Assembly (NCBI GenBank): GCA_021734405.1
Contig: JAIPJA010000003.1
Span: 1-58,454 of the forward strand
Origin: Minisyncoccota bacterium
Lineage (GTDB): Bacteria > Patescibacteriota > Patescibacteriia > Patescibacteriales > UBA12465
Reading direction: 5' to 3'
DNA length: 58,454 nucleotides
This document shows positions 13,153 through 47,924 of the stretch, one piece after another (within the stretch, counting starts at the first letter, position 1; each line of letters starts with the position of its first letter). The position numbers were made by a program, and so were the translations under genes. The notes under the pieces were generated by a model, which ran no database searches, was not told the origin of the DNA, and was given only the letters and a program-made list of their open reading frames with translations.

Positions 13153-14949
13153 TTAAGATAAATCTATTTCCTCGCCTTCAGTTAAAACCTGATCCCCTGA
13201 AGACTTATTAATCTTTTTATTTTCTAGTTCCTTATCACTTTCTAATTCCTCCTCACTTTCATAAGCTACAGTGGGCGTCGGAGGAGCAATTTTTTTCTCT
13301 CTGCCTCTAAAATCACTGACTTTAGCTTGACTTAACTTGTTTAAAGAAATAAAAGTATCCGGCTCTTTTGACTCCTCTTTAACTTCTTCTATTTTTTTAA
13401 CGTTAGCTAAATTAGGTTTAAATGATTTTTCTTCTAATTGTTTTAACTCTTTGGCTTTAATTATTTTTCTTTGTTCTTGATTATTTTTTTTATCTTCTCT
13501 AATTTTTTCTAAACAATCTTTACAATACACTGGTCTTACCCCATCTGGCTCAAAAGGAGTAAAAGTTTGTTTTGCGCAACGAGCACATTTAGAGGCAAAT
13601 TTTTTATCATTACTAGAGTTTTGTTCTGATTTGCTATTAGAATTGTTTTTTTTGTCAAAAGTACTATCAATACTTTCATGCCAATGCATAATTTTTTCTT
13701 CAACAACTTCTCTCTCATTAGCATAACGCTCTCTAGAATAATTTATTACCTTATCTACATTATTAGTTTTTTCTCCGCTTGTCAAAGGCGGTAAACCTCT
13801 GGCTGAAAAGGGCGTGGAAGCAATTCCGTCTATCATTAATTTTAAATACATTTCATACTTAGGCAAATTTACAATATCTTCTTCAATGAAAGTAGGAGTA
13901 AACTCTTTTACCAGCTCCTCAGCGTCAGTGGCTCCCACCCTAAAAACTACTAAAGTGCCCACATTACCAAAAACAGCAGCTTTGACAGTATCTCCTAATT
14001 GTTCAATATATTGATGAGCCATAATTAGATTAAGACGATACTTTCTAGCTTCAGATAAAATATTAGCAAAACTCTCAGTACTAAAGTTTTGAAACTCATC
14101 AATATATAAATAAAAATCTTGTCGCTTTTCTTCATCAATATCTACCCGACTCATAGCAGCTAATTGGATTTTAGTAATCATCATTGCTCCTAATAAAGCA
14201 CTATTATCTTCTCCTATTCTACCTTTACTTAAGTTCATAATTAAAATTTTACGATTATCCATAATATCTCTCAAATCAATAGAAGATCTAACCTGTCCTA
14301 CAATGTTTCTCATAAGTGAACTAGAAAGAAATTGCCCTACCTTATTTTGAATCGGAGAAACTGCTTCCGCGGCAAACTTATCAGCATAACCACTAAACTC
14401 TTTTTCCCAAAAAGCTTTTACTACTGGATCTTGAATTTTAGCTACCACACTTTTTCTATACTCTTTATCGGAAAGCATTCTAATTACTCCCAATAGAGTT
14501 GAGTTAGGATAATCTAAAGTTGCTAAAATTGCATTTCTTAAAATATATTCTAAACGAGGCCCCCAAGAATCAGCCCACAACTTTTTAAATACTCCTATAA
14601 GACCAGAAGCTACTAAATGTCGCAAATGAGGTTCAACCTGCTCTACCACATTAAAGGCTACTGGATAATTCATGTCAGAAGGGTTGAAATAAACAACATC
14701 TTGTATTCTATGGCTAGGAATATATTGTATAACTTTTTCTGCCAAATCACCATGCGGATCTACCACAGCCACACCTTGACCGGCTCTAATATCGGAGACA
14801 ATCATATTTTCTAAAACTGTAGATTTACCCATACCAGTTTTTCCAATAAAATACATATGCCGACGCCTATCGTCAGTTTTTATGCCAAACTCTCTATAAC
14901 TATTTCTAAAGTTAGTTTCAGCAAAAACTGTTATCTTGTTACTAATCAT
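13153..14949 (-). CDS. soluble TraD/VirD4-type (T4 coupling-protein-like) P-loop ATPase with a C-terminal CxxC-x17-CxxC zinc ribbon and a K/E-rich tail
   Basis: Walker A GKTGMGKST, Walker B YLYIDEFQNF, then ARKYRLNLIMAHQYIEQL. No TM helices. Zinc ribbon C455-x2-C458-x17-C476-x2-C479. Confidence 0.65.
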   Translation of the reverse strand: MISNKITVFAETNFRNSYREFGIKTDDRRRHMYFIGKTGMGKSTVLENMIVSDIRAGQGVAVVDPHGDLAEKVIQYIPSHRIQDVVYFNPSDMNYPVAFNVVEQVEPHLRHLVASGLIGVFKKLWADSWGPRLEYILRNAILATLDYPNSTLLGVIRMLSDKEYRKSVVAKIQDPVVKAFWEKEFSGYADKFAAEAVSPIQNKVGQFLSSSLMRNIVGQVRSSIDLRDIMDNRKILIMNLSKGRIGEDNSALLGAMMITKIQLAAMSRVDIDEEKRQDFYLYIDEFQNFSTESFANILSEARKYRLNLIMAHQYIEQLGDTVKAAVFGNVGTLVVFRVGATDAEELVKEFTPTFIEEDIVNLPKYEMYLKLMIDGIASTPFSARGLPPLTSGEKTNNVDKVINYSRERYANEREVVEEKIMHWHESIDSTFDKKNNSNSKSEQNSSNDKKFASKCARCAKQTFTPFEPDGVRPVYCKDCLEKIREDKKNNQEQRKIIKAKELKQLEEKSFKPNLANVKKIEEVKEESKEPDTFISLNKLSQAKVSDFRGREKKIAPPTPTVAYESEEELESDKELENKKINKSSGDQVLTEGEEIDLS

Positions 14950-14953
14950 AAAA

Positions 14954-15262
14954 TCAATTGTTTAAATTAAAACTACTTGTATTTACAACTGAAGGCAGTT
15001 TATCCATTAAGTCTTCTAGAAAAGGCGGTAAATATATAATTACCAAAACAATAGGCACAACAATAACTACCAGTTGAATAAAGCCAATAATTTTACGCCA
15101 AAAAACATAGCCTTTAATATAGGTGCTAATATCTAAAATTTCTTGACTAACAGCTAAATTTTTTTCCAATAAAGATTTTAGTTCAGCATTACTAGGTTGA
15201 GGTCCTAAGTTAATAGGGGTAGAGTTTTTTTCTTCTTCAGTCATATTTTTATTTATCTCCAA
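14954..15262 (-). CDS. small membrane protein, unknown function
   Basis: 102 aa with one long hydrophobic segment (IIGFIQLVVIVVPIVLVIIYLPPF). The start overlaps the nrdG stop by 10 nt, suggesting translational coupling. Confidence 0.5.
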   Translation of the reverse strand: MEINKNMTEEEKNSTPINLGPQPSNAELKSLLEKNLAVSQEILDISTYIKGYVFWRKIIGFIQLVVIVVPIVLVIIYLPPFLEDLMDKLPSVVNTSSFNLNN

Positions 15263-15975
15263 TTAGTATTTTTAATATATTTTTTAGCAATGTTTACCAA
15301 GCTTTCCATGTCTTTGTCACTATAGGCAGAAAACTTCTTGTAATTCATATTAACTAAATCACTTTCTGACTTAAACTGCTGTAAATACCACTTACTATTT
15401 TTAGGTAAATATTTAGCCATCTTTTCTATATCAGCTGGGCTTAGAAGTTGTGGCAAGACTGTAGTTCTAAATTCATGACCAATTTTACTCCCTGCTATCA
15501 TTTTAACACTTTTCGCAATTTTTCTAAAATCTAAATTAACATTTACCACTTTCTTATAGTCTTCTATAGGGGCCTTGAAATCCATGGCAATATAATCTAT
15601 AAGTTTTTTATCAAGTAAACGAGCCACTATTTCCGGTCTAGTGCCATTTGTATCTAGTTTTACTAAATACCCTAAATCTTTCACTTTAGCTATAAAGGTC
15701 TCTAAATCAGGTTGTAAGGTGGGCTCTCCACCAGTTATAACCAAGCCTTCTAACTTTCCCTGTCTATATTTTAAAAACTGAAAAAGCTCATTCTCAGAAA
15801 TTAAAGAATAAGCTTTCTCATTTTTATCTTTTTTGCCTGATCCCTTCTTAGGCCAGACAAGCATAGGGTTATAGCAATAATGACAACGGAAATTACAGGA
15901 AACTGTAAATATAATAGCAGCTAAATGATTAGGATAATCTATTAAAGTTAGTTTTTCTAAAGCAGCGATTTTCAT
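15253..15975 (-). CDS. nrdG: anaerobic ribonucleoside-triphosphate reductase activating protein (radical SAM)
   Basis: CNFRCHYC (CxxxCxxC) cluster and GGEPT motif. Located in the nrd operon. Confidence 0.9.
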   Translation of the reverse strand: MKIAALEKLTLIDYPNHLAAIIFTVSCNFRCHYCYNPMLVWPKKGSGKKDKNEKAYSLISENELFQFLKYRQGKLEGLVITGGEPTLQPDLETFIAKVKDLGYLVKLDTNGTRPEIVARLLDKKLIDYIAMDFKAPIEDYKKVVNVNLDFRKIAKSVKMIAGSKIGHEFRTTVLPQLLSPADIEKMAKYLPKNSKWYLQQFKSESDLVNMNYKKFSAYSDKDMESLVNIAKKYIKNTNWR

Positions 15976-16035
15976 ATAAGTGAAGATAGCTTAAGCAAAC
16001 TGAACAAACTTTAAACTAACTTCACTTTGCTCAAA

Positions 16036-16188
16036 CTACTGTTTAATTTTATAGGTTTTTCTATCTTTATATTCTGAAGCCTTACCTTTATTATAGTTCT
16101 TAGTTGGAGTTAACCAGCCAACTACCCGGCTATAGACAATACATTCTTGTCTATCAAGCTGTTTTGGACTCATATCTTTTATAGGCAT
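16036..16188 (-). CDS. stand-alone 50-aa glycyl-radical segment of class III RNR (detached NrdD C-terminus)
   Basis: Hand translation: MPIKDMSPKQLDRQECIVYSRVVGWLTPTKNYNKGKASEYKDRKTYKIKQ*. SRVVGW...NKGK..E..DR matches the NrdD C-terminal glycyl-radical signature, which is missing from the 690-aa NrdD ORF. Confidence 0.7.
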   Translation of the reverse strand: MPIKDMSPKQLDRQECIVYSRVVGWLTPTKNYNKGKASEYKDRKTYKIKQ

Positions 16189-16237
16189 AAGCTGATATAT
16201 AAAAGCTCAGTGGCCTTATATTAATTATTAATAAATC

Positions 16238-18310
16238 TTATTTTTTCTTATTTATATCTGCTTCCTCTTTTGCCCCTTCTAGATCTTCTTTTTCCACATA
16301 ACCTATTTCCTGATCACATTTAGGGCAATACTTGTGCTCCCCGGAAAGATAGCCATGCTTAGGACAAATAGAGAAAGTGGGGGTGATAGTAAAATATGGA
16401 AGCTTGTAGCTATAGATAATATTTTTAACTAACTTCTTAGTAGTCTCAGCGTCTTTAATTCTTTCTCCAATAAAGCCATGTAAAACTGTTCCACCAGTAT
16501 ATTTAGTTTGTAAGCTATCTTGCAAATCTAAAGCTGTATAAATATCATCAGTAAAATTAACTGGCAAATGAGTAGAGTTAGTATAATAAGGTTCAGCTCC
16601 ATCCTCGTAAGCTTCTTGATTGGCGCACAGGATGTCTTTGTAAAGCTCTTTATCTTTTTTAGCAAATCTGTAGGTAGCTCCTTCAGCTGGAGAAGCTTCA
16701 AGATTATATAAATTATTAGTCTGATTTTGATAATCCATTAAACGTTCTCTCATCATATCTAATATTTCCTCAGCCAAGGCTTTACCTTTTTCACTGGCAA
16801 TATTTTCGCCCATAAAATTTAACAGAGCTTCGTTCATTCCATTTATGCCAATAGTGCTAAAGTGGTTTTGCCAATAGGTTTTAAACCTTTGTTTTATGCC
16901 TTGTAAATAATGACTAGAGTAGGGGTAAAGTCCGCCATCGGAAAGTTTTTCAACTATATCTCTTTTTATCTCTAAGCTTTCTTTAGCCATATCCATTAAC
17001 TCTTTAAGTCTATCTTTAAAATCTTTTTTAGTCTTAGATAAATAACCAATACGAGCTAAGTTAATAGTAACCACACCTAAACTTCCAGTTAGAGGATTAG
17101 CACCAAAAAGCCCACCACCTCTTTTTCTCAGTTCTCTATTATCTAAACGCAACCTACAACACATACTTCTAGCATCATCTCTGTCCATGTCTGAATTTAC
17201 AAAGTTAGAGAAATAAGGGATGCCATACTTAGCAGTCATCTCCCACATAGGCTCTAGAGCCTCAGCTGTCCAATCAAAGCTTTTATCAATGTTATAGGTA
17301 GGGATAGGAAAGGAAAATACTCTACCAGTAGAGTCTCCTGCTAACATTACTTCAGCAAAAGCCTTATTAAACATGTCCATTTCTTTTTGAAAATCTTTAT
17401 ACTTCTCCTTTTGTGGTTCTCCACCAATAATAATGCTTTCTTCTCCTAACAATTTAGAAGGGGTAACATCTAAAGTTACATTGGTAAAAGGAGTTTGGAA
17501 GCCTACTCTAGTAGGTACATTTACATTAAACATGAATTCCTGTAAGCACTGTTTTACATCTTTGTAGCTTAATTTATCATAACGAATAAAAGGAGCTAGA
17601 TAAGTGTCAAAGTTAGCAAAAGCTTGAGCTCCAGCAGCTTCACCTTGCATGGTATAGAAAAAATTAACAATTTGTCCCAAAGCACTTCTAAAATGTTTAG
17701 GGGGTTTACTTTGTACTTTTTCATTTACACCGCCAAAACCTTTTATAAGCAGATCTTTTAAATCCCAACCACAACAATAAGGAGCTAAAAGCCCTAAATC
17801 ATGAATATGAAAATCACCATTTATATGAGCTTCTCTGATATTTTTAGGATAAAGCTTATTTAACCAATAACGAGCAGAGATAGCTGAAGCTAAATAATTA
17901 TTAAGCCCCTGAACGGAATAGCTCATGTTACTGTTCTCCTTAAGCCTCCAATCTAATCTACCTAAATAGTCTTCCATTAATTTTTCTCCAGTGGCAGACT
18001 TAATTTCTCTTAGTTGTCTATGTTGCTCTCTGTAAATTATAAAGGCTTTGGCAATATTTATTTTATTGCGTCTAATTAAGACTTCCTCAACAATATCCTG
18101 AGCCTCCTCTACAGCTGGAATGCTGTTTTTATGAAACTTAGAATTTATCTTTTTAACAACTTCATTAGCCAAATCTTTAGCTAAGCTTTTATCATCAACG
18201 CCAACTGCTTTAGCAGCGCTGTAGATAGCTTTATAAATCTTGTCCTTTTTAAATTCGACAATTTTGCCGGAGCGCTTGCGAATTTGAGAAATAGTTTCGG
18301 GCATAAGCAT
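16238..18310 (-). CDS. nrdD: anaerobic ribonucleoside-triphosphate reductase catalytic subunit, lacking the glycyl-radical tail
   Basis: N-terminal ATP-cone and conserved class III core (e.g. SMCCRLRLD). The C-terminal zinc ribbon CPKHGY...CPKC is followed only by an acidic/K-rich tail and TAA. Confidence 0.9.
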   Translation of the reverse strand: MLMPETISQIRKRSGKIVEFKKDKIYKAIYSAAKAVGVDDKSLAKDLANEVVKKINSKFHKNSIPAVEEAQDIVEEVLIRRNKINIAKAFIIYREQHRQLREIKSATGEKLMEDYLGRLDWRLKENSNMSYSVQGLNNYLASAISARYWLNKLYPKNIREAHINGDFHIHDLGLLAPYCCGWDLKDLLIKGFGGVNEKVQSKPPKHFRSALGQIVNFFYTMQGEAAGAQAFANFDTYLAPFIRYDKLSYKDVKQCLQEFMFNVNVPTRVGFQTPFTNVTLDVTPSKLLGEESIIIGGEPQKEKYKDFQKEMDMFNKAFAEVMLAGDSTGRVFSFPIPTYNIDKSFDWTAEALEPMWEMTAKYGIPYFSNFVNSDMDRDDARSMCCRLRLDNRELRKRGGGLFGANPLTGSLGVVTINLARIGYLSKTKKDFKDRLKELMDMAKESLEIKRDIVEKLSDGGLYPYSSHYLQGIKQRFKTYWQNHFSTIGINGMNEALLNFMGENIASEKGKALAEEILDMMRERLMDYQNQTNNLYNLEASPAEGATYRFAKKDKELYKDILCANQEAYEDGAEPYYTNSTHLPVNFTDDIYTALDLQDSLQTKYTGGTVLHGFIGERIKDAETTKKLVKNIIYSYKLPYFTITPTFSICPKHGYLSGEHKYCPKCDQEIGYVEKEDLEGAKEEADINKKK

Positions 18311-18317
18311 GGGGTAG

Positions 18318-18791
18318 TTAATTTTTTTTAATTATTTTCTTTTTTTTAATTAATTTGTTTAGCTCATTTCTAAATTGCTTAGCATCTTTAAAGGATTCAT
18401 AAACAGAAGCATAGCGGATATAAGCAACCTGATCTGTCCTTTTTAAATGCCTCATAATAATTTCTCCTATTTTCTCTGAGGCTATTTTATTTTTTCTTAT
18501 TTTTTGTACATCTCTCTCTATAGCATGAACCAGTCTTTGAAACTTTTCTTTATCTACCGGTCTTTTTTCCAAAGCTCTTTTTAAACCCTTAACTATTTTT
18601 TCCCGATTATATAATTCATGACGTCCATCTTTTTTCACAATCACTAAATCAAGTATTTCTATTTCTTCATAAGTAGAAAAACGAAAACCACATTTAAGAC
18701 ACTCTCGACGTCTCCTAATGCAAAGCCCATCTGACGCAGAGCGAGAATCTATAACTTTAGTGTCTTCAAAATAACAGATGGGGCATTTCAT
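18318..18791 (-). CDS. nrdR: transcriptional repressor NrdR
   Basis: MKCPICYFEDTKVIDSR... zinc ribbon (CxxC...CxxC) plus an ATP-cone. Confidence 0.9.
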   Translation of the reverse strand: MKCPICYFEDTKVIDSRSASDGLCIRRRRECLKCGFRFSTYEEIEILDLVIVKKDGRHELYNREKIVKGLKRALEKRPVDKEKFQRLVHAIERDVQKIRKNKIASEKIGEIIMRHLKRTDQVAYIRYASVYESFKDAKQFRNELNKLIKKKKIIKKN

Positions 18792-45227: not shown

Positions 45228-47873
45228 TTAATTACAAGTAGCACTATTGGTAGGAACATTATTACAACAAGTAGGAAGACCACTAGTAGCTTCACAGCCT
45301 AGACTAGCGCTAGGTTTGTAACAATTTTGATAAATATTTTTAACTCCAGAACCGGCTTCAGCTGTATGAGCCATAGAATCAGCAAATAAAGAATGGTTGA
45401 TATATACATGCGTCTGGTCAACTCCATCTAAAGGTGTGTCAGTATCTATATCCTCAGCATTTATCCAATAACCTAAAGGATAAGGAGCTGAACCCCAAAG
45501 ATTAACTCTTCTGTGAGTAAAGCTATCATTACCTGACTGTATAATTGTGCTACCTGTTTTTAAAGTACTTTTCATCATTAAACTATCAAATTCTATCTTA
45601 ACTGGAGAAGCTAAATTAACATTATCGCCATTTACATCAGGCTCAATTAAATTAATTATTGGTGGTTCTAAAGCAATATAGTCACTGATATAAAAAGACC
45701 AAGTAAAGCTATCACCTTTACTAACATCTTCTGGGGTATTTTCTGAGTAATAACTAACAGGACCCTCAGCCTTGTTATTTCTGTTACCATCAAAAGAATT
45801 AAAAGCTAAATCAACTATGCCAGAACTAACATCAATGGGTGCAGCTGGATAATTTTCTAAAGCATCATTTTGACAAACACTAACAGCCGGACTACAAGTT
45901 AAATAAGGATCTAAACCTGAACAATCATCATCAATAGCACAAGAATTTAAAATCGCCGCTGTAATTTTTACCTTTAAGTTAGACTTGGCAGGCAGACAAT
46001 AAATAGTTTCTCCACAGCCATTAACTCCACAAATATTATCAGAGACAAATTCTAAAGTAGAAAATTGATTAGAAAGCACAAATTTACCAGCTAATTCATT
46101 GCCAACACATTCTCCCCCGTCGCTACAATTATAGGAAAGACACTCTTTATCTTCTGTACAAGCTTCTTCATCCACCTTATCACCTTCAGCACTAATAATT
46201 TTAACTGTATTAGCTACATCTTCAGCCCTGCCTGATACCATGGCTGGGTTTATAGGTTCATTAAAATTAACTTGTATAACTGAATTTCTAGGCTGATCTT
46301 TTGCATCATTTTTAATATAATTAATTTGGCTATTAGCTCCGCCTGTCATTGGGGTTAAAGAAATAGCACTACTGTTAGAAGTATTTAAAATAATATTATT
46401 TCCACCCGAACCAACTGAAGAAGCAGTTAATTCAACTGTATTGCCGTCAAGGGTAGCTATTATATTAGGGTTATTATTTAAAGCTTCTAAAATATTATCA
46501 GCTTGCTCATCATTGTCAGCGCCTTTTTCAATTTTAGTTGCCCCAGAACTATTAGCAAAAGAGTAAACAATATCTCCAACTCTCAAGGTGTCAGCAAAAA
46601 TTTCAAGATTTACAATCACTTCCCATAAATTACCGACCTCTGGATTAGCATCAAAAGTTAAAGAAAAATAATTAGGAAAATTAACAGTATTACCATTTAT
46701 ATTAGCAATGGTAATTAAAGTAGTAGTCCCCACGCCTTCAAATAACTGGGCTTTAGTGGGATTAAGTACAAAAACGGAAAATTCTTCAAGTTGCTGATGA
46801 TAATTAGGACTAATTGTAGCAGAATCAATATCTACATCACCAACTACAGTGGTAGTGCTAGCCATATTCATACTAGCAGGCACATATACCTTTAATTGGC
46901 TAAAGTCATTAACAGTAATTAAACCCTCAGCTGCCACAGCTGTAGAAGAAGCAACTTCATCTCTTAAATTATCAGCTCCAGGGAAAACTCCTCCTACCTC
47001 TACTTGAGGAGGCATTAAATCTAAAATAGTACCAACTTGAAAATCCCATTGTAAATAATCTGTACTACAAGTAGTAAATACCCCCTTGCCATCGCTTAAC
47101 TTATTAATATCATTAGTTAAATAAACCGTATACCAAATTTTTTCTGAACTAGAGCCTAATAAATTATCAGGTTTAAGAACAAAATCCATACCTGGACCAT
47201 CTAATGGATTAGCATCAATAATTTTTACATTTTCTAAACTTTGGTCAGGCTCACTGGACTTATATATCTTAATATTATCTGTATTAATATAATCTCCCTG
47301 ATTGCAATAAGTTGCGTCAGCATTACTATCAAGACACATATCCTCTAACATAACCGGCTCCTTAAAACTAACTAATATTGAAGTATTTCTAGGTACATCT
47401 TTTTGTCCAGGAGCGGGGTAAACAGATTCAACTGAACAAGCCCCTAAAGCTCCCAAGCCTAAATTAACATTATTGTTATTGTTGTTATTATTACTATTGC
47501 CAGCGCCAGTAGCGTCTAAAAGGCTGTTTAATATAAAGGTGGTTATACCAAAAGAAGCTAAAATTATTAAAAGCCCTATGACTCCATTAGTTAAAGTCTT
47601 TTTAGCTTTAGAAACTTTTTCTTCACTGCCACCACTGGTCATCCAAAGAAAACCAGCATAGAGAATGATAACTACTGCTATTAAGCCTAAAAGTCCCAAA
47701 GCTATTTGAATAATTCTGGCCACTACTACTCTAGGATCATTATTGCCTAATTCTAAATTATCATTTAACTGATTTAAACCAACATCTACAGCTAAGGTTG
47801 GATTAGGTAAAATAAAAAAAGCCAGGCCAAGAAAAACAAGAGATATTATAAAAATAAATAGTTTCTTTCTCAT
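45228..47873 (-). CDS. large surface protein (881 aa): paralogous VirB2/TrbC-like two-TM pilin module, poly-Asn linker, SbsA/Big_5-like Ig domains, Cys-rich C-terminal third
   Basis: The N-terminal 125 aa are about 60% identical to those of the 1834-aa protein. Ig-domain starts VYPAPGQKDVPRNTSILVSFKEPV and QPRNSVIQVNFNEPINP. Confidence 0.9.
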   Translation of the reverse strand: MRKKLFIFIISLVFLGLAFFILPNPTLAVDVGLNQLNDNLELGNNDPRVVVARIIQIALGLLGLIAVVIILYAGFLWMTSGGSEEKVSKAKKTLTNGVIGLLIILASFGITTFILNSLLDATGAGNSNNNNNNNNVNLGLGALGACSVESVYPAPGQKDVPRNTSILVSFKEPVMLEDMCLDSNADATYCNQGDYINTDNIKIYKSSEPDQSLENVKIIDANPLDGPGMDFVLKPDNLLGSSSEKIWYTVYLTNDINKLSDGKGVFTTCSTDYLQWDFQVGTILDLMPPQVEVGGVFPGADNLRDEVASSTAVAAEGLITVNDFSQLKVYVPASMNMASTTTVVGDVDIDSATISPNYHQQLEEFSVFVLNPTKAQLFEGVGTTTLITIANINGNTVNFPNYFSLTFDANPEVGNLWEVIVNLEIFADTLRVGDIVYSFANSSGATKIEKGADNDEQADNILEALNNNPNIIATLDGNTVELTASSVGSGGNNIILNTSNSSAISLTPMTGGANSQINYIKNDAKDQPRNSVIQVNFNEPINPAMVSGRAEDVANTVKIISAEGDKVDEEACTEDKECLSYNCSDGGECVGNELAGKFVLSNQFSTLEFVSDNICGVNGCGETIYCLPAKSNLKVKITAAILNSCAIDDDCSGLDPYLTCSPAVSVCQNDALENYPAAPIDVSSGIVDLAFNSFDGNRNNKAEGPVSYYSENTPEDVSKGDSFTWSFYISDYIALEPPIINLIEPDVNGDNVNLASPVKIEFDSLMMKSTLKTGSTIIQSGNDSFTHRRVNLWGSAPYPLGYWINAEDIDTDTPLDGVDQTHVYINHSLFADSMAHTAEAGSGVKNIYQNCYKPSASLGCEATSGLPTCCNNVPTNSATCN

Positions 47874-47924
47874 CTGGGTTTAAAAAATTTAATTTATTCT
47901 TGCTTTTACTAAGCTTGTCCATCT

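Follow-up and report, generated by a model that had tools for sequence, protein, structure and literature searches.

A putative split anaerobic ribonucleotide reductase with a separately encoded glycyl-radical peptide in Patescibacteria

The nrdD locus of a Minisyncoccota bacterium

In this work, we analyzed a stretch of 58,454 nucleotides from a Minisyncoccota bacterium (contig JAIPJA010000003.1 of assembly GCA_021734405.1; the whole stretch is hereinafter the window) that encodes a class III (anaerobic) ribonucleotide reductase (RNR). In class III RNRs as described in textbooks, the glycyl radical resides on the catalytic chain itself. In the window, four co-directional genes on the minus strand (15253-18791; all features of the cluster described below are on this strand) follow each other in the order nrdR, nrdD-large, nrdD-small and nrdG, so that the catalytic chain and the glycyl-radical segment of NrdD are encoded by two separate genes. 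We consider it highly probable that this locus represents a naturally split, obligate two-subunit class III RNR with the radical carried in trans.

The nrdD-large gene (16238-18310) encodes the class III RNR catalytic subunit of 690 aa, or of 688 aa if translation starts at the ATG at 18302-18304. The protein matches Pfam NRDD (PF13597; positions 1-532 of 562, E = 1.4e-184, 615 bits), the NCBIfam model NF006126 (model positions 3-655 of 684, 1039 bits with a cut-off of 548) and TIGR02487 (524 bits, cut-off 326). It contains an ATP-cone, the allosteric activity site (residues 9-98; 18017-18286; PF03477, E = 5.8e-17), and the finger-loop cysteines C384 and C385 (SMCCRLRL; 17156-17161), which are invariant in our alignments A3, A4 and A5 and, by homology, are the presumed radical acceptor; the finger loop of the T. 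maritima NrdD contains a motif of the same kind, the 'SCCR motif' (PMC4493059). The final conserved fold element is a predicted zinc ribbon, C649-x2-H652 ... C662-x2-C665 (16316-16366), which in the alignments matches the Zn site region of the solved NrdDs and in which C649, C662 and C665 show no variation in any alignment, whether the homologues are split or fused. Just past the zinc ribbon, the protein terminates in ...CPKHGYLSGEHKYCPKCDQEIGYVEKEDLEGAKEEADINKKK, followed by the TAA stop codon (16238-16240), and no RVxG[YW] glycyl-radical motif was found in nrdD-large. Hence, of the features that define the NrdD family, the barrel, the predicted finger-loop cysteines, the zinc ribbon and a nearby nrdG are all present, but the RVxG[YFW] ... 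N.GK..E..R signature is not located on the barrel's own chain, and the full signature is obtained only when both products are taken together.

The first ATG past the nrdD-large stop (16186-16188), 49 nt downstream and in the +1 frame, opens a 50-aa open reading frame (ORF; 16036-16188), MPIKDMSPKQLDRQECIVYSRVVGWLTPTKNYNKGKASEYKDRKTYKIKQ, the frame of which is shut upstream by a stop codon at 16207-16209. A preliminary description of the sequence had already pointed to the stop codon behind the zinc ribbon of a NrdD ORF without the glycyl-radical motif, to the downstream ORF in a different frame with the NrdD C-terminal signature, and to the upstream stop in that frame, and all three are borne out by the present analysis. 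The small ORF matches the very end of Pfam NRDD (positions 531-562 of 562, E = 5e-7, 29.2 bits, gathering score 26.2), beginning where the match of nrdD-large (1-532) stops, and the end of NF006126 (positions 649-683 of 684); judged by its sequence, it is far beyond chance. Public gene callers do predict this ORF, and it is often labeled 'hypothetical protein' by NCBI and JGI. No second NrdD and no other Gly motif was found in the 58-kb window.

The two nrdD genes are flanked by two further nrd genes. The first gene of the cluster, nrdR (18318-18791), encodes a canonical transcriptional repressor of RNR genes of 157 aa (TIGR00244 NrdR, 176 bits; Pfam Zn_ribbon_NrdR and ATP-cone). The nrdG gene (15253-15975), starting 60 nt downstream of nrdD-small, encodes a radical-SAM activase of 240 aa (TIGR02495 NrdG2, 200 bits with a cut-off of 131; Pfam Radical_SAM). 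No terminator was found between the genes of the cluster (15253-18791), and no terminator or promoter beyond chance was found between the two nrdD ORFs.

Conservation and distribution of the split

A scan with nrdD-large, in which each species was represented by one genome, yielded 574 confirmed relatives, and the best 80 of these (65-89% identity), which come from metagenome-assembled genomes (MAGs) of Falkowbacteria and other Patescibacteria, complete chromosomes included, were examined. Of these 80 relatives, 78 have the split, with a NrdD ORF that terminates a short distance past the zinc ribbon and a Gly motif that follows 52-249 nt beyond the stop. The preliminary description had named a continuous nrdD ORF in sister genomes as the observation that would speak against a genuine split, and the outcome is the opposite. 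Altogether, at least 144 related loci share the split arrangement with the window; the statistics given below for 79 loci refer to the 78 split relatives and the window.

Across these loci, conservation starts at a conserved Met (MSP.QT.RQEC.VYSRVVGW...), and the sequence upstream is unconserved. The respective ATG precedes the RV codon by exactly 45 nt in 67 of the 79 loci and by 48 nt in 8. The conserved start in the window is the second ATG, at 16171-16173 (MSPKQ...). Furthermore, in a related strain from another metagenome (run X3, from an oil-production facility), one nucleotide is inserted at 16179, within the A-run between the two candidate ATGs; this insertion shifts the first ATG out of frame and, along with five nearby substitutions, leaves the 45-aa frame untouched. 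Because the conserved ATG is the second one and the insertion in the X3 strain displaces the first, the product of nrdD-small most likely consists of 45 aa, not 50 aa; the ORF of the preliminary description is real, and it is the length of its product that has to be revised. With this start, nrdD-small spans 16036-16173, including the TAG stop codon (16036-16038), and encodes the putative glycyl-radical subunit MSPKQLDRQECIVYSRVVGWLTPTKNYNKGKASEYKDRKTYKIKQ, in which Gly19 (codon GGC, 16117-16119) is the predicted radical site. The spacer between the two genes (16174-16237) is AT-rich and unconserved and comprises 64 nt to the conserved ATG and 49 nt to the first ATG.

The small ORF evolves under purifying selection (mean pS 0.82, mean pN 0.22, dN/dS ~0.22 for 199 unsaturated pairs), its synonymous sites being saturated while the peptide is conserved. 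Residues R16, V17, V18, G19, N28, G30, K31, E34 and R38 are invariant in the small subunits. All 26 small ORFs that were scanned match Pfam NRDD only, and none of the 26 matches the Gly_radical family of the pyruvate formate-lyase (PFL) type at E <= 1. When 5.8 billion proteins were searched, the small ORF matched 71 clusters, all of them consisting of stand-alone proteins of 42-69 aa; most of these clusters lack a source name, and the few that are named are denoted 'hypothetical protein' or 'anaerobic ribonucleoside-triphosphate reductase'.

The split extends beyond the clade that includes the window. We searched nrdD-large against 1.84 billion representatives clustered at 50% identity and examined the top 150, of which 120 were informative: 67 are fused proteins with the Gly motif (e.g., ...CPKCTIKQPCEVYSRIVGYLRP...), 53 are Gly-less and end 0-45 residues past the zinc ribbon, and the remaining 30 are fragments. 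Four Gly-less representatives from other clades were looked up, and in each of the four loci we found a separate NRDD-matching ORF of 49-61 aa with the full signature. The gene orders differ among the lineages: the small ORF immediately follows the large one in locus L084 and follows it at 90 nt in L085; the order is large, nrdG, small in L086 as well as in the viral contigs L089 and L090 (135 and 237 kb); and in L082 it is large, DUF7487, nrdG, small. A genome scan with the large subunit from another clade gave 82 loci, with 62 split, 10 fused and 10 undetermined forms, in which scoring under genetic code 25 may misclassify a few alphaproteobacterial loci that were left out of the evidence. 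The taxa of this second lineage include Moraniibacteriota, MAGs labeled 'Peribacteria', Absconditabacteria/SR1, Gracilibacteria (code 25), Saccharibacteria, a Woesearchaeote chromosome and a few contigs with proteobacterial labels. No split was found in the closest cultured phages, the NrdDs of Oceanotoga phage UFV02 and Clostridium phage phiCTP1 being fused. In a rough neighbor-joining tree, which was built from p-distances on intein-stripped fragments and serves to show interleaving only, not to count origins, split and fused forms are interleaved, and the clade of the window is placed beside a fused sister clade (57-59% identity). Collectively, these comparisons show that the split is not confined to the genome of the window but is a widespread trait, which probably arose more than once.

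The gene orders bear directly on the way in which the two pieces come together. Where nrdG is located between the pieces, neither frameshift nor bypass, readthrough or cis-splicing can rejoin them, and therefore, as predicted from the gene order, the Gly loop must be provided in trans in those lineages. For the window, in which the two genes are adjacent, supply in trans appears to be by far the simplest reading. The suggestion of the preliminary description that the radical loop acts in trans thus gains support. The two-gene architecture, its conservation, the selection that acts on both genes, the constant presence of the activase gene nearby and the existence of several gene orders are matters of observation.

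Several features of the subunits merit attention in their own right. The first zinc-ligand pair of nrdD-large (16355-16366) is Cys-x2-His (CPKH), as opposed to Cys-x2-Cys in T4-type NrdD; H652 is invariant only within the clade of the window (17 paired sequences), whereas some of the fused relatives have Cys or Asp instead. The conserved Cys of the small subunit (QEC) was considered as a fourth zinc ligand, but such a role is not supported as a general feature, given that Thr, Ala or Leu frequently occupies this or a nearby position in fused relatives. Directly after the zinc ribbon, the C-terminal tail of nrdD-large, DQEIGYVEKEDLEGAKEEADINKKK (16241-16315), opens with a D-x-E-x-G-[YFW] motif (D666-Y671, 16298-16315), which is found in 65 of the 79 loci, and then becomes variable and probably disordered. 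This motif resembles the VxG[YW] of the Gly loop, and MAFFT aligns the Gly loops of fused proteins with the 'EIGY' tail of the large subunit; it may be a remnant of that loop or, alternatively, serve in docking. Long-tailed large subunits (L028, L030, L046, L059, L061, L065-L067, L069-L071, L074, L075 and L077) end in a second conserved motif, ER(D/N/S)(L/I)I.(A/S)(M/I)(A/S), optionally followed by G(F/L), that is missing in the window. Many large and small subunits of loci L001-L080 and L091-L170 end in a cysteine pair (e.g., …ERCSTC, …NPTCC, …EDSCC, …GGGCGSCGCDK and …FVACGC). At least two cysteines occur among the last 10 residues of 15 large and 11 small subunits, with one or the other in 23 of the 79 loci; the proteins of the window have no such pair. 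Such ends are frequent on the small subunits of Absconditabacteria and Gracilibacteria and are reminiscent of the tails that act as redox shuttles in RNRs of classes I and II; on many subunits they may add a redox tail like those of these classes. Although the locus is clearly of the Patescibacteria type, the title of many of the MAG records that contain it (L001, L002, L009 and others) reads 'uncultured Gammaproteobacteria bacterium' (binchicken co-assemblies), and Planctomycetota and Nanoarchaeia each appear in the title of one record; generic labeling or mis-binning probably accounts for these titles.

Mobile elements are common in and around the homologues. Inteins are abundant in the NrdD homologues P0072-P0221, many of which carry one to several of them; representatives are 850-1880 aa long and align in 2-4 matched stretches, with recurrent breakpoints near query residues ~172, 222, 271, 333 and 385, the last of which adjoins the finger-loop CC; the gene of the window is intein-free. 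At the split junction of L082, between nrdD-large and nrdG, there is a gene for a 353-aa DUF7487 protein (L082:4616-5677) that contains several 'KYGV.N' repeats and, C-terminally, the nuclease-like motif 'DFYIP..IEYNG.WTH'; this gene is missing in the 99%-identical viral contig L089 (junction L089:6109-6116). The two contigs differ by the presence or absence of a probable homing endonuclease gene at the split junction.

Elsewhere in the window, the minus strand encodes a TrwB/VirD4-like coupling protein of 598 aa (13153-14949) and an 883-aa protein with a T4SS-pilin domain and Ig-like repeats (45231-47879). The window further encodes SecDF, a P-type ATPase and an AddA-like helicase-nuclease, and its GC content is 32%; these features fit a Patescibacteria chromosome.

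Structure model, proposed mechanism and alternative explanations

To place the small subunit structurally, the large and small products of the window were joined end to end, with their natural tails as the linker, and modeled with AlphaFold. Folding from the single sequence gave no usable model (pLDDT 38), and the model based on alignment A5, which consists of the joined chain and 27 fused homologues with the register checked, reached a mean pLDDT of 87.3 and a pTM of 0.81. The top PDB matches of this model are all NrdD (8P23, 9D3X, 4U3E and 1H7A, from P. copri, S. thermophilus, T. maritima and T4), with target-normalised TM values of at most 0.76. Model residues 671-694, that is, the tail of the large subunit and the N-terminus of the small one, mostly have pLDDT <50, suggesting that the junction is probably disordered. 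The core of the small subunit (residues 701-735, block-mean pLDDT 80-93) is modeled as a beta-hairpin (702-707/710-713) followed by a helix (719-727), and G709 of the model, which corresponds to Gly19, is positioned between the two strands of the hairpin (block-mean pLDDT 87). A phmmer search of the PDB with the lone 45-aa sequence gave no match, and the profile of the small ORFs was needed to align it with residues 616-645 of the T. maritima NrdD; in this alignment, RVVG-W falls on RIVG-Y (618-622) and Gly19 is opposite Gly621, the radical site of the T. maritima enzyme (PMC4493059). The split therefore falls inside the classical glycyl radical domain, with the zinc ribbon remaining on the large chain and the Gly hairpin and the C-terminal helix being located on the small one.

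Homology suggests how a two-chain NrdD would assemble, become activated and act. The large subunit would contribute the ATP-cone, the zinc ribbon and the catalytic barrel, including the cysteines of the finger loop, and the separately translated 45-aa peptide would contribute the glycyl-radical hairpin with Gly19 and the short C-terminal helix. The peptide would first dock in the barrel non-covalently, in the manner of a covalent Gly loop; NrdG would then abstract the hydrogen of Gly19 while the peptide is free or has flipped out of the barrel; and the radical would finally pass to Cys384/385 for nucleotide reduction. Such a mechanism appears plausible because the PFL activase is able to install a glycyl radical on a 7-residue peptide (PMC13450708), GrcA/YfiD acts as a detachable Gly domain for PFL (PMC13450708), and the Gly domain of NrdD is highly mobile (PMC11226230) and is thought to exit the barrel for activation (PMC11226230; PMC4493059).

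The split likely originated when the exposed linker that connects the zinc ribbon to the Gly loop was disrupted, in a region of mobile-element activity in the NrdD family. On a neutral route, a mobile element would break this linker, as the intein-rich subfamily and the DUF7487 gene at the L082 junction suggest. The recurrence of the split across clades and gene orders suggests that it is at least well tolerated. Oxygen cleaves glycyl-radical enzymes, such as T4 NrdD and PFL, at the radical glycine. Under an adaptive economy, which is compatible with the neutral route, the 45-residue peptide may be replaced after such cleavage, instead of the 690-residue enzyme. One could speculate, with much reserve, that the split is adaptive and that the peptide is a replaceable 'radical cartridge' that is charged by NrdG when free, then plugged into the barrel, and discarded after oxygen cleavage; we regard this possibility as doubtful. 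If true, it would amount to a built-in, GrcA-like repair for DNA-precursor synthesis that evolved repeatedly in genome-reduced Patescibacteria, DPANN archaea and large viral contigs at oxic-anoxic boundaries, and would provide a living example of an RNR radical moving to a separate subunit, as in class I.

Several points weigh against our interpretation of the locus. A Shine-Dalgarno sequence is recognizable in front of just 10 of the 79 small ORFs. The runs found to contain the locus are DNA contigs only, with no RNA-seq run among those listed. The docking seen in the model is driven by homology, given that the chain was joined and the peptide was aligned with fused homologues, and does not constitute independent evidence. 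The 'cheap repair' rationale for an advantage of the split is pure inference, and the data are explained just as well by a neutral history of genes in pieces.

Among the alternatives to a two-subunit RNR, one is that the large protein is no longer a glycyl-radical RNR at all but has, for example, a regulatory or nucleotide-binding function, the small ORF being a relic or having an unrelated role. Unexpected active-site arrangements do occur in the family, as in the T. maritima NrdD (PMC4493059). However, the catalytic hallmarks of the large subunit, namely, the CC of the finger loop, the zinc ribbon and the motifs of the barrel, are invariant, every residue of the Gly-loop signature is kept in the small ORF, nrdG and nrdR are retained alongside, and both ORFs are intact across hundreds of genomes; we therefore find this alternative improbable.

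A different possibility is translational recoding, whereby a programmed frameshift, stop-codon readthrough or bypassing of the T4 gene 60 type would yield one polypeptide. In the clade of the window, the ORFs are adjacent and on the same strand, and the gap of 49-64 nt in the window is close to the 50-nt bypass of T4 gene 60. Nevertheless, the relative frames 0, 1 and 2 of the two ORFs are represented near-uniformly, by 34, 22 and 23 of the 79 loci, respectively; the stop-to-start gap varies between 4 and 201 nt (median 74 nt), with no conserved sequence in the spacers; and only 7 of the 34 same-frame loci have a single in-frame stop between the ORFs, whereas the other 27 have 2-9. The onset of conservation is marked by the conserved ATG, with nothing conserved upstream of it, and there is no matched pair of take-off and landing codons at the junction of the window, the large gene ending in AAA AAA TAA and the small one beginning with ATG AGT CCA, so that gap length, codon match and conserved signals all differ from those of a bypass element. 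In other lineages, moreover, nrdG, or nrdG and another gene, lies between the pieces. Taken together, these data make recoding very improbable.

The pieces might also be joined by excision of a small mRNA intron or by a split intein. Group I introns are classically found in nrdD (T4 I-TevII, Lactococcus phage 949; PMC3653736), and NrdD homologues of the same subfamily carry up to three or more inteins. Yet neither a group I nor a group II intron would fit into a spacer of such short and variable length, and an Rfam search of 15900-16500 at a permissive threshold revealed no match to an intron or RNA family beyond a sub-threshold CRISPR-DR47 match inside the small ORF (16057-16094, minus strand; 23.8 bits with a gathering score of 39, E = 0.054), which we judge to be due to chance. 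The tail of ~25 aa on the large subunit and the ~10 residues that precede the core of the small one are unconserved and too short for intein halves, no N- and C-fragments of an intein flank the break, no intein Pfam matches were found in the large tail or in the small ORFs, and stand-alone products are favored by the loci in which nrdG separates the pieces; splicing at either level thus has very little chance of being the explanation. Finally, an assembly or sequencing artefact, or a strain-specific pseudogene, that masks a continuous nrdD can be safely dismissed, in agreement with the preliminary description, which had argued against a single sequencing error: even if a stop and a frame change near the end of a gene are the typical signature of an indel error, and the nrdD of Aeromonas phage phiAS4 is fragmented for an unexplained cause (PMC3653736), the split is found in 78 of 80 independent assemblies from many studies, in every relative frame and with spacers of 4-201 nt that are not homologous to each other, the start codon of the small ORF is conserved and its dN/dS is ~0.22, and the source contig is clean, with 13.5x coverage and no variants over the region.

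Comparison with known systems

A stand-alone NrdD Gly-loop protein was not found described in the searchable full-text literature, which mostly does not cover subscription journals, so that an earlier mention is possible; our targeted full-text searches thus turned up none, in line with the preliminary description, which knew of no NrdD equivalent. According to a review of June 2026, formate lyases are the only glycyl radical enzymes with spare-part proteins. A natural, widespread and obligate two-chain NrdD, if true, would change this formate-lyase-only view of detachable glycyl-radical proteins. The radical element would then be available as a 45-residue peptide for separate synthesis, isotope labeling and mutation, and several questions would become testable: how the activase gains access to a glycine buried in the barrel, whether activation takes place on or off the enzyme, and how oxygen damage is handled. 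There are also implications for annotation: surveys that expect a C-terminal Gly domain could misread the large subunits as truncated, and the capacity of Patescibacteria and DPANN to make dNTPs could be misjudged in metabolic reconstructions.

The analogy with GrcA/YfiD, the spare-part protein of PFL, which had been drawn in the preliminary description, holds with one amendment. GrcA is a protein of ~127 aa, compared with the 45 aa of nrdD-small. Like nrdD-small, GrcA/YfiD is a small stand-alone homologue of the C-terminal Gly domain of its partner, and, according to PMC13450708 (see also PMC8683613), it is activated by the radical-SAM activase of the partner and provides the radical loop in trans to a large subunit without an intact loop. 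In contrast, GrcA backs up a PFL that encodes a complete Gly domain and acts only after oxygen cleavage, whereas nrdD-large never encodes the loop; therefore, the small NrdD protein would be an obligate subunit and not a backup. Furthermore, unlike in the GrcA system, the zinc ribbon of the split NrdD is on the large subunit.

Within the RNRs, class II offers an organizational parallel in NrdJa/NrdJb, which is found in Pseudomonas aeruginosa and also in Thermus phage phiYS40 and Synechococcus phage P60. As in the split NrdD, the catalytic chain of NrdJa/NrdJb is encoded by two consecutive ORFs, with a C-terminal module on the second (PMC9669993; PMC3653736). The differences are that NrdJ is a B12-dependent class II enzyme and that NrdJb is a sizeable domain that comprises zinc-finger, IscU-like and Cys-pair re-reduction modules and carries no radical. 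In class I, the RNR large subunit of Aeromonas phage Aeh1 is split into NrdA-a and NrdA-b by a mobile homing endonuclease gene and is still functional, as cited in PMC3653736, a situation comparable to the L082 junction with its endonuclease-like DUF7487 gene; this split is, however, confined to a single phage lineage as reported and is located away from the radical-bearing element. Phage 'split nrdD' genes have been catalogued as well, namely, the T4 I-TevII intron, Lactococcus phage 949, the Clostridium phage c-st intein and the phiAS4 fragments (PMC3653736), but these are cases of RNA or protein splicing or unexplained fragmentation in a single genome, and none is a conserved stand-alone Gly-loop gene.

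The arrangement proposed here further resembles the alpha and beta subunits of class I RNRs in that the stable radical is on a chain apart from the catalytic barrel, and part of the class Ia radical subunit of E. coli even folds over the active site (PMC11226230). The likeness is organizational only: class I relies on a metallocofactor on a ferritin-like beta subunit and on long-range radical transfer, and NrdB is not homologous to the 45-aa peptide. With the split NrdD, class III would become the third RNR class among the 'genes in pieces' enzymes, in a family that is saturated with inteins and homing endonucleases.

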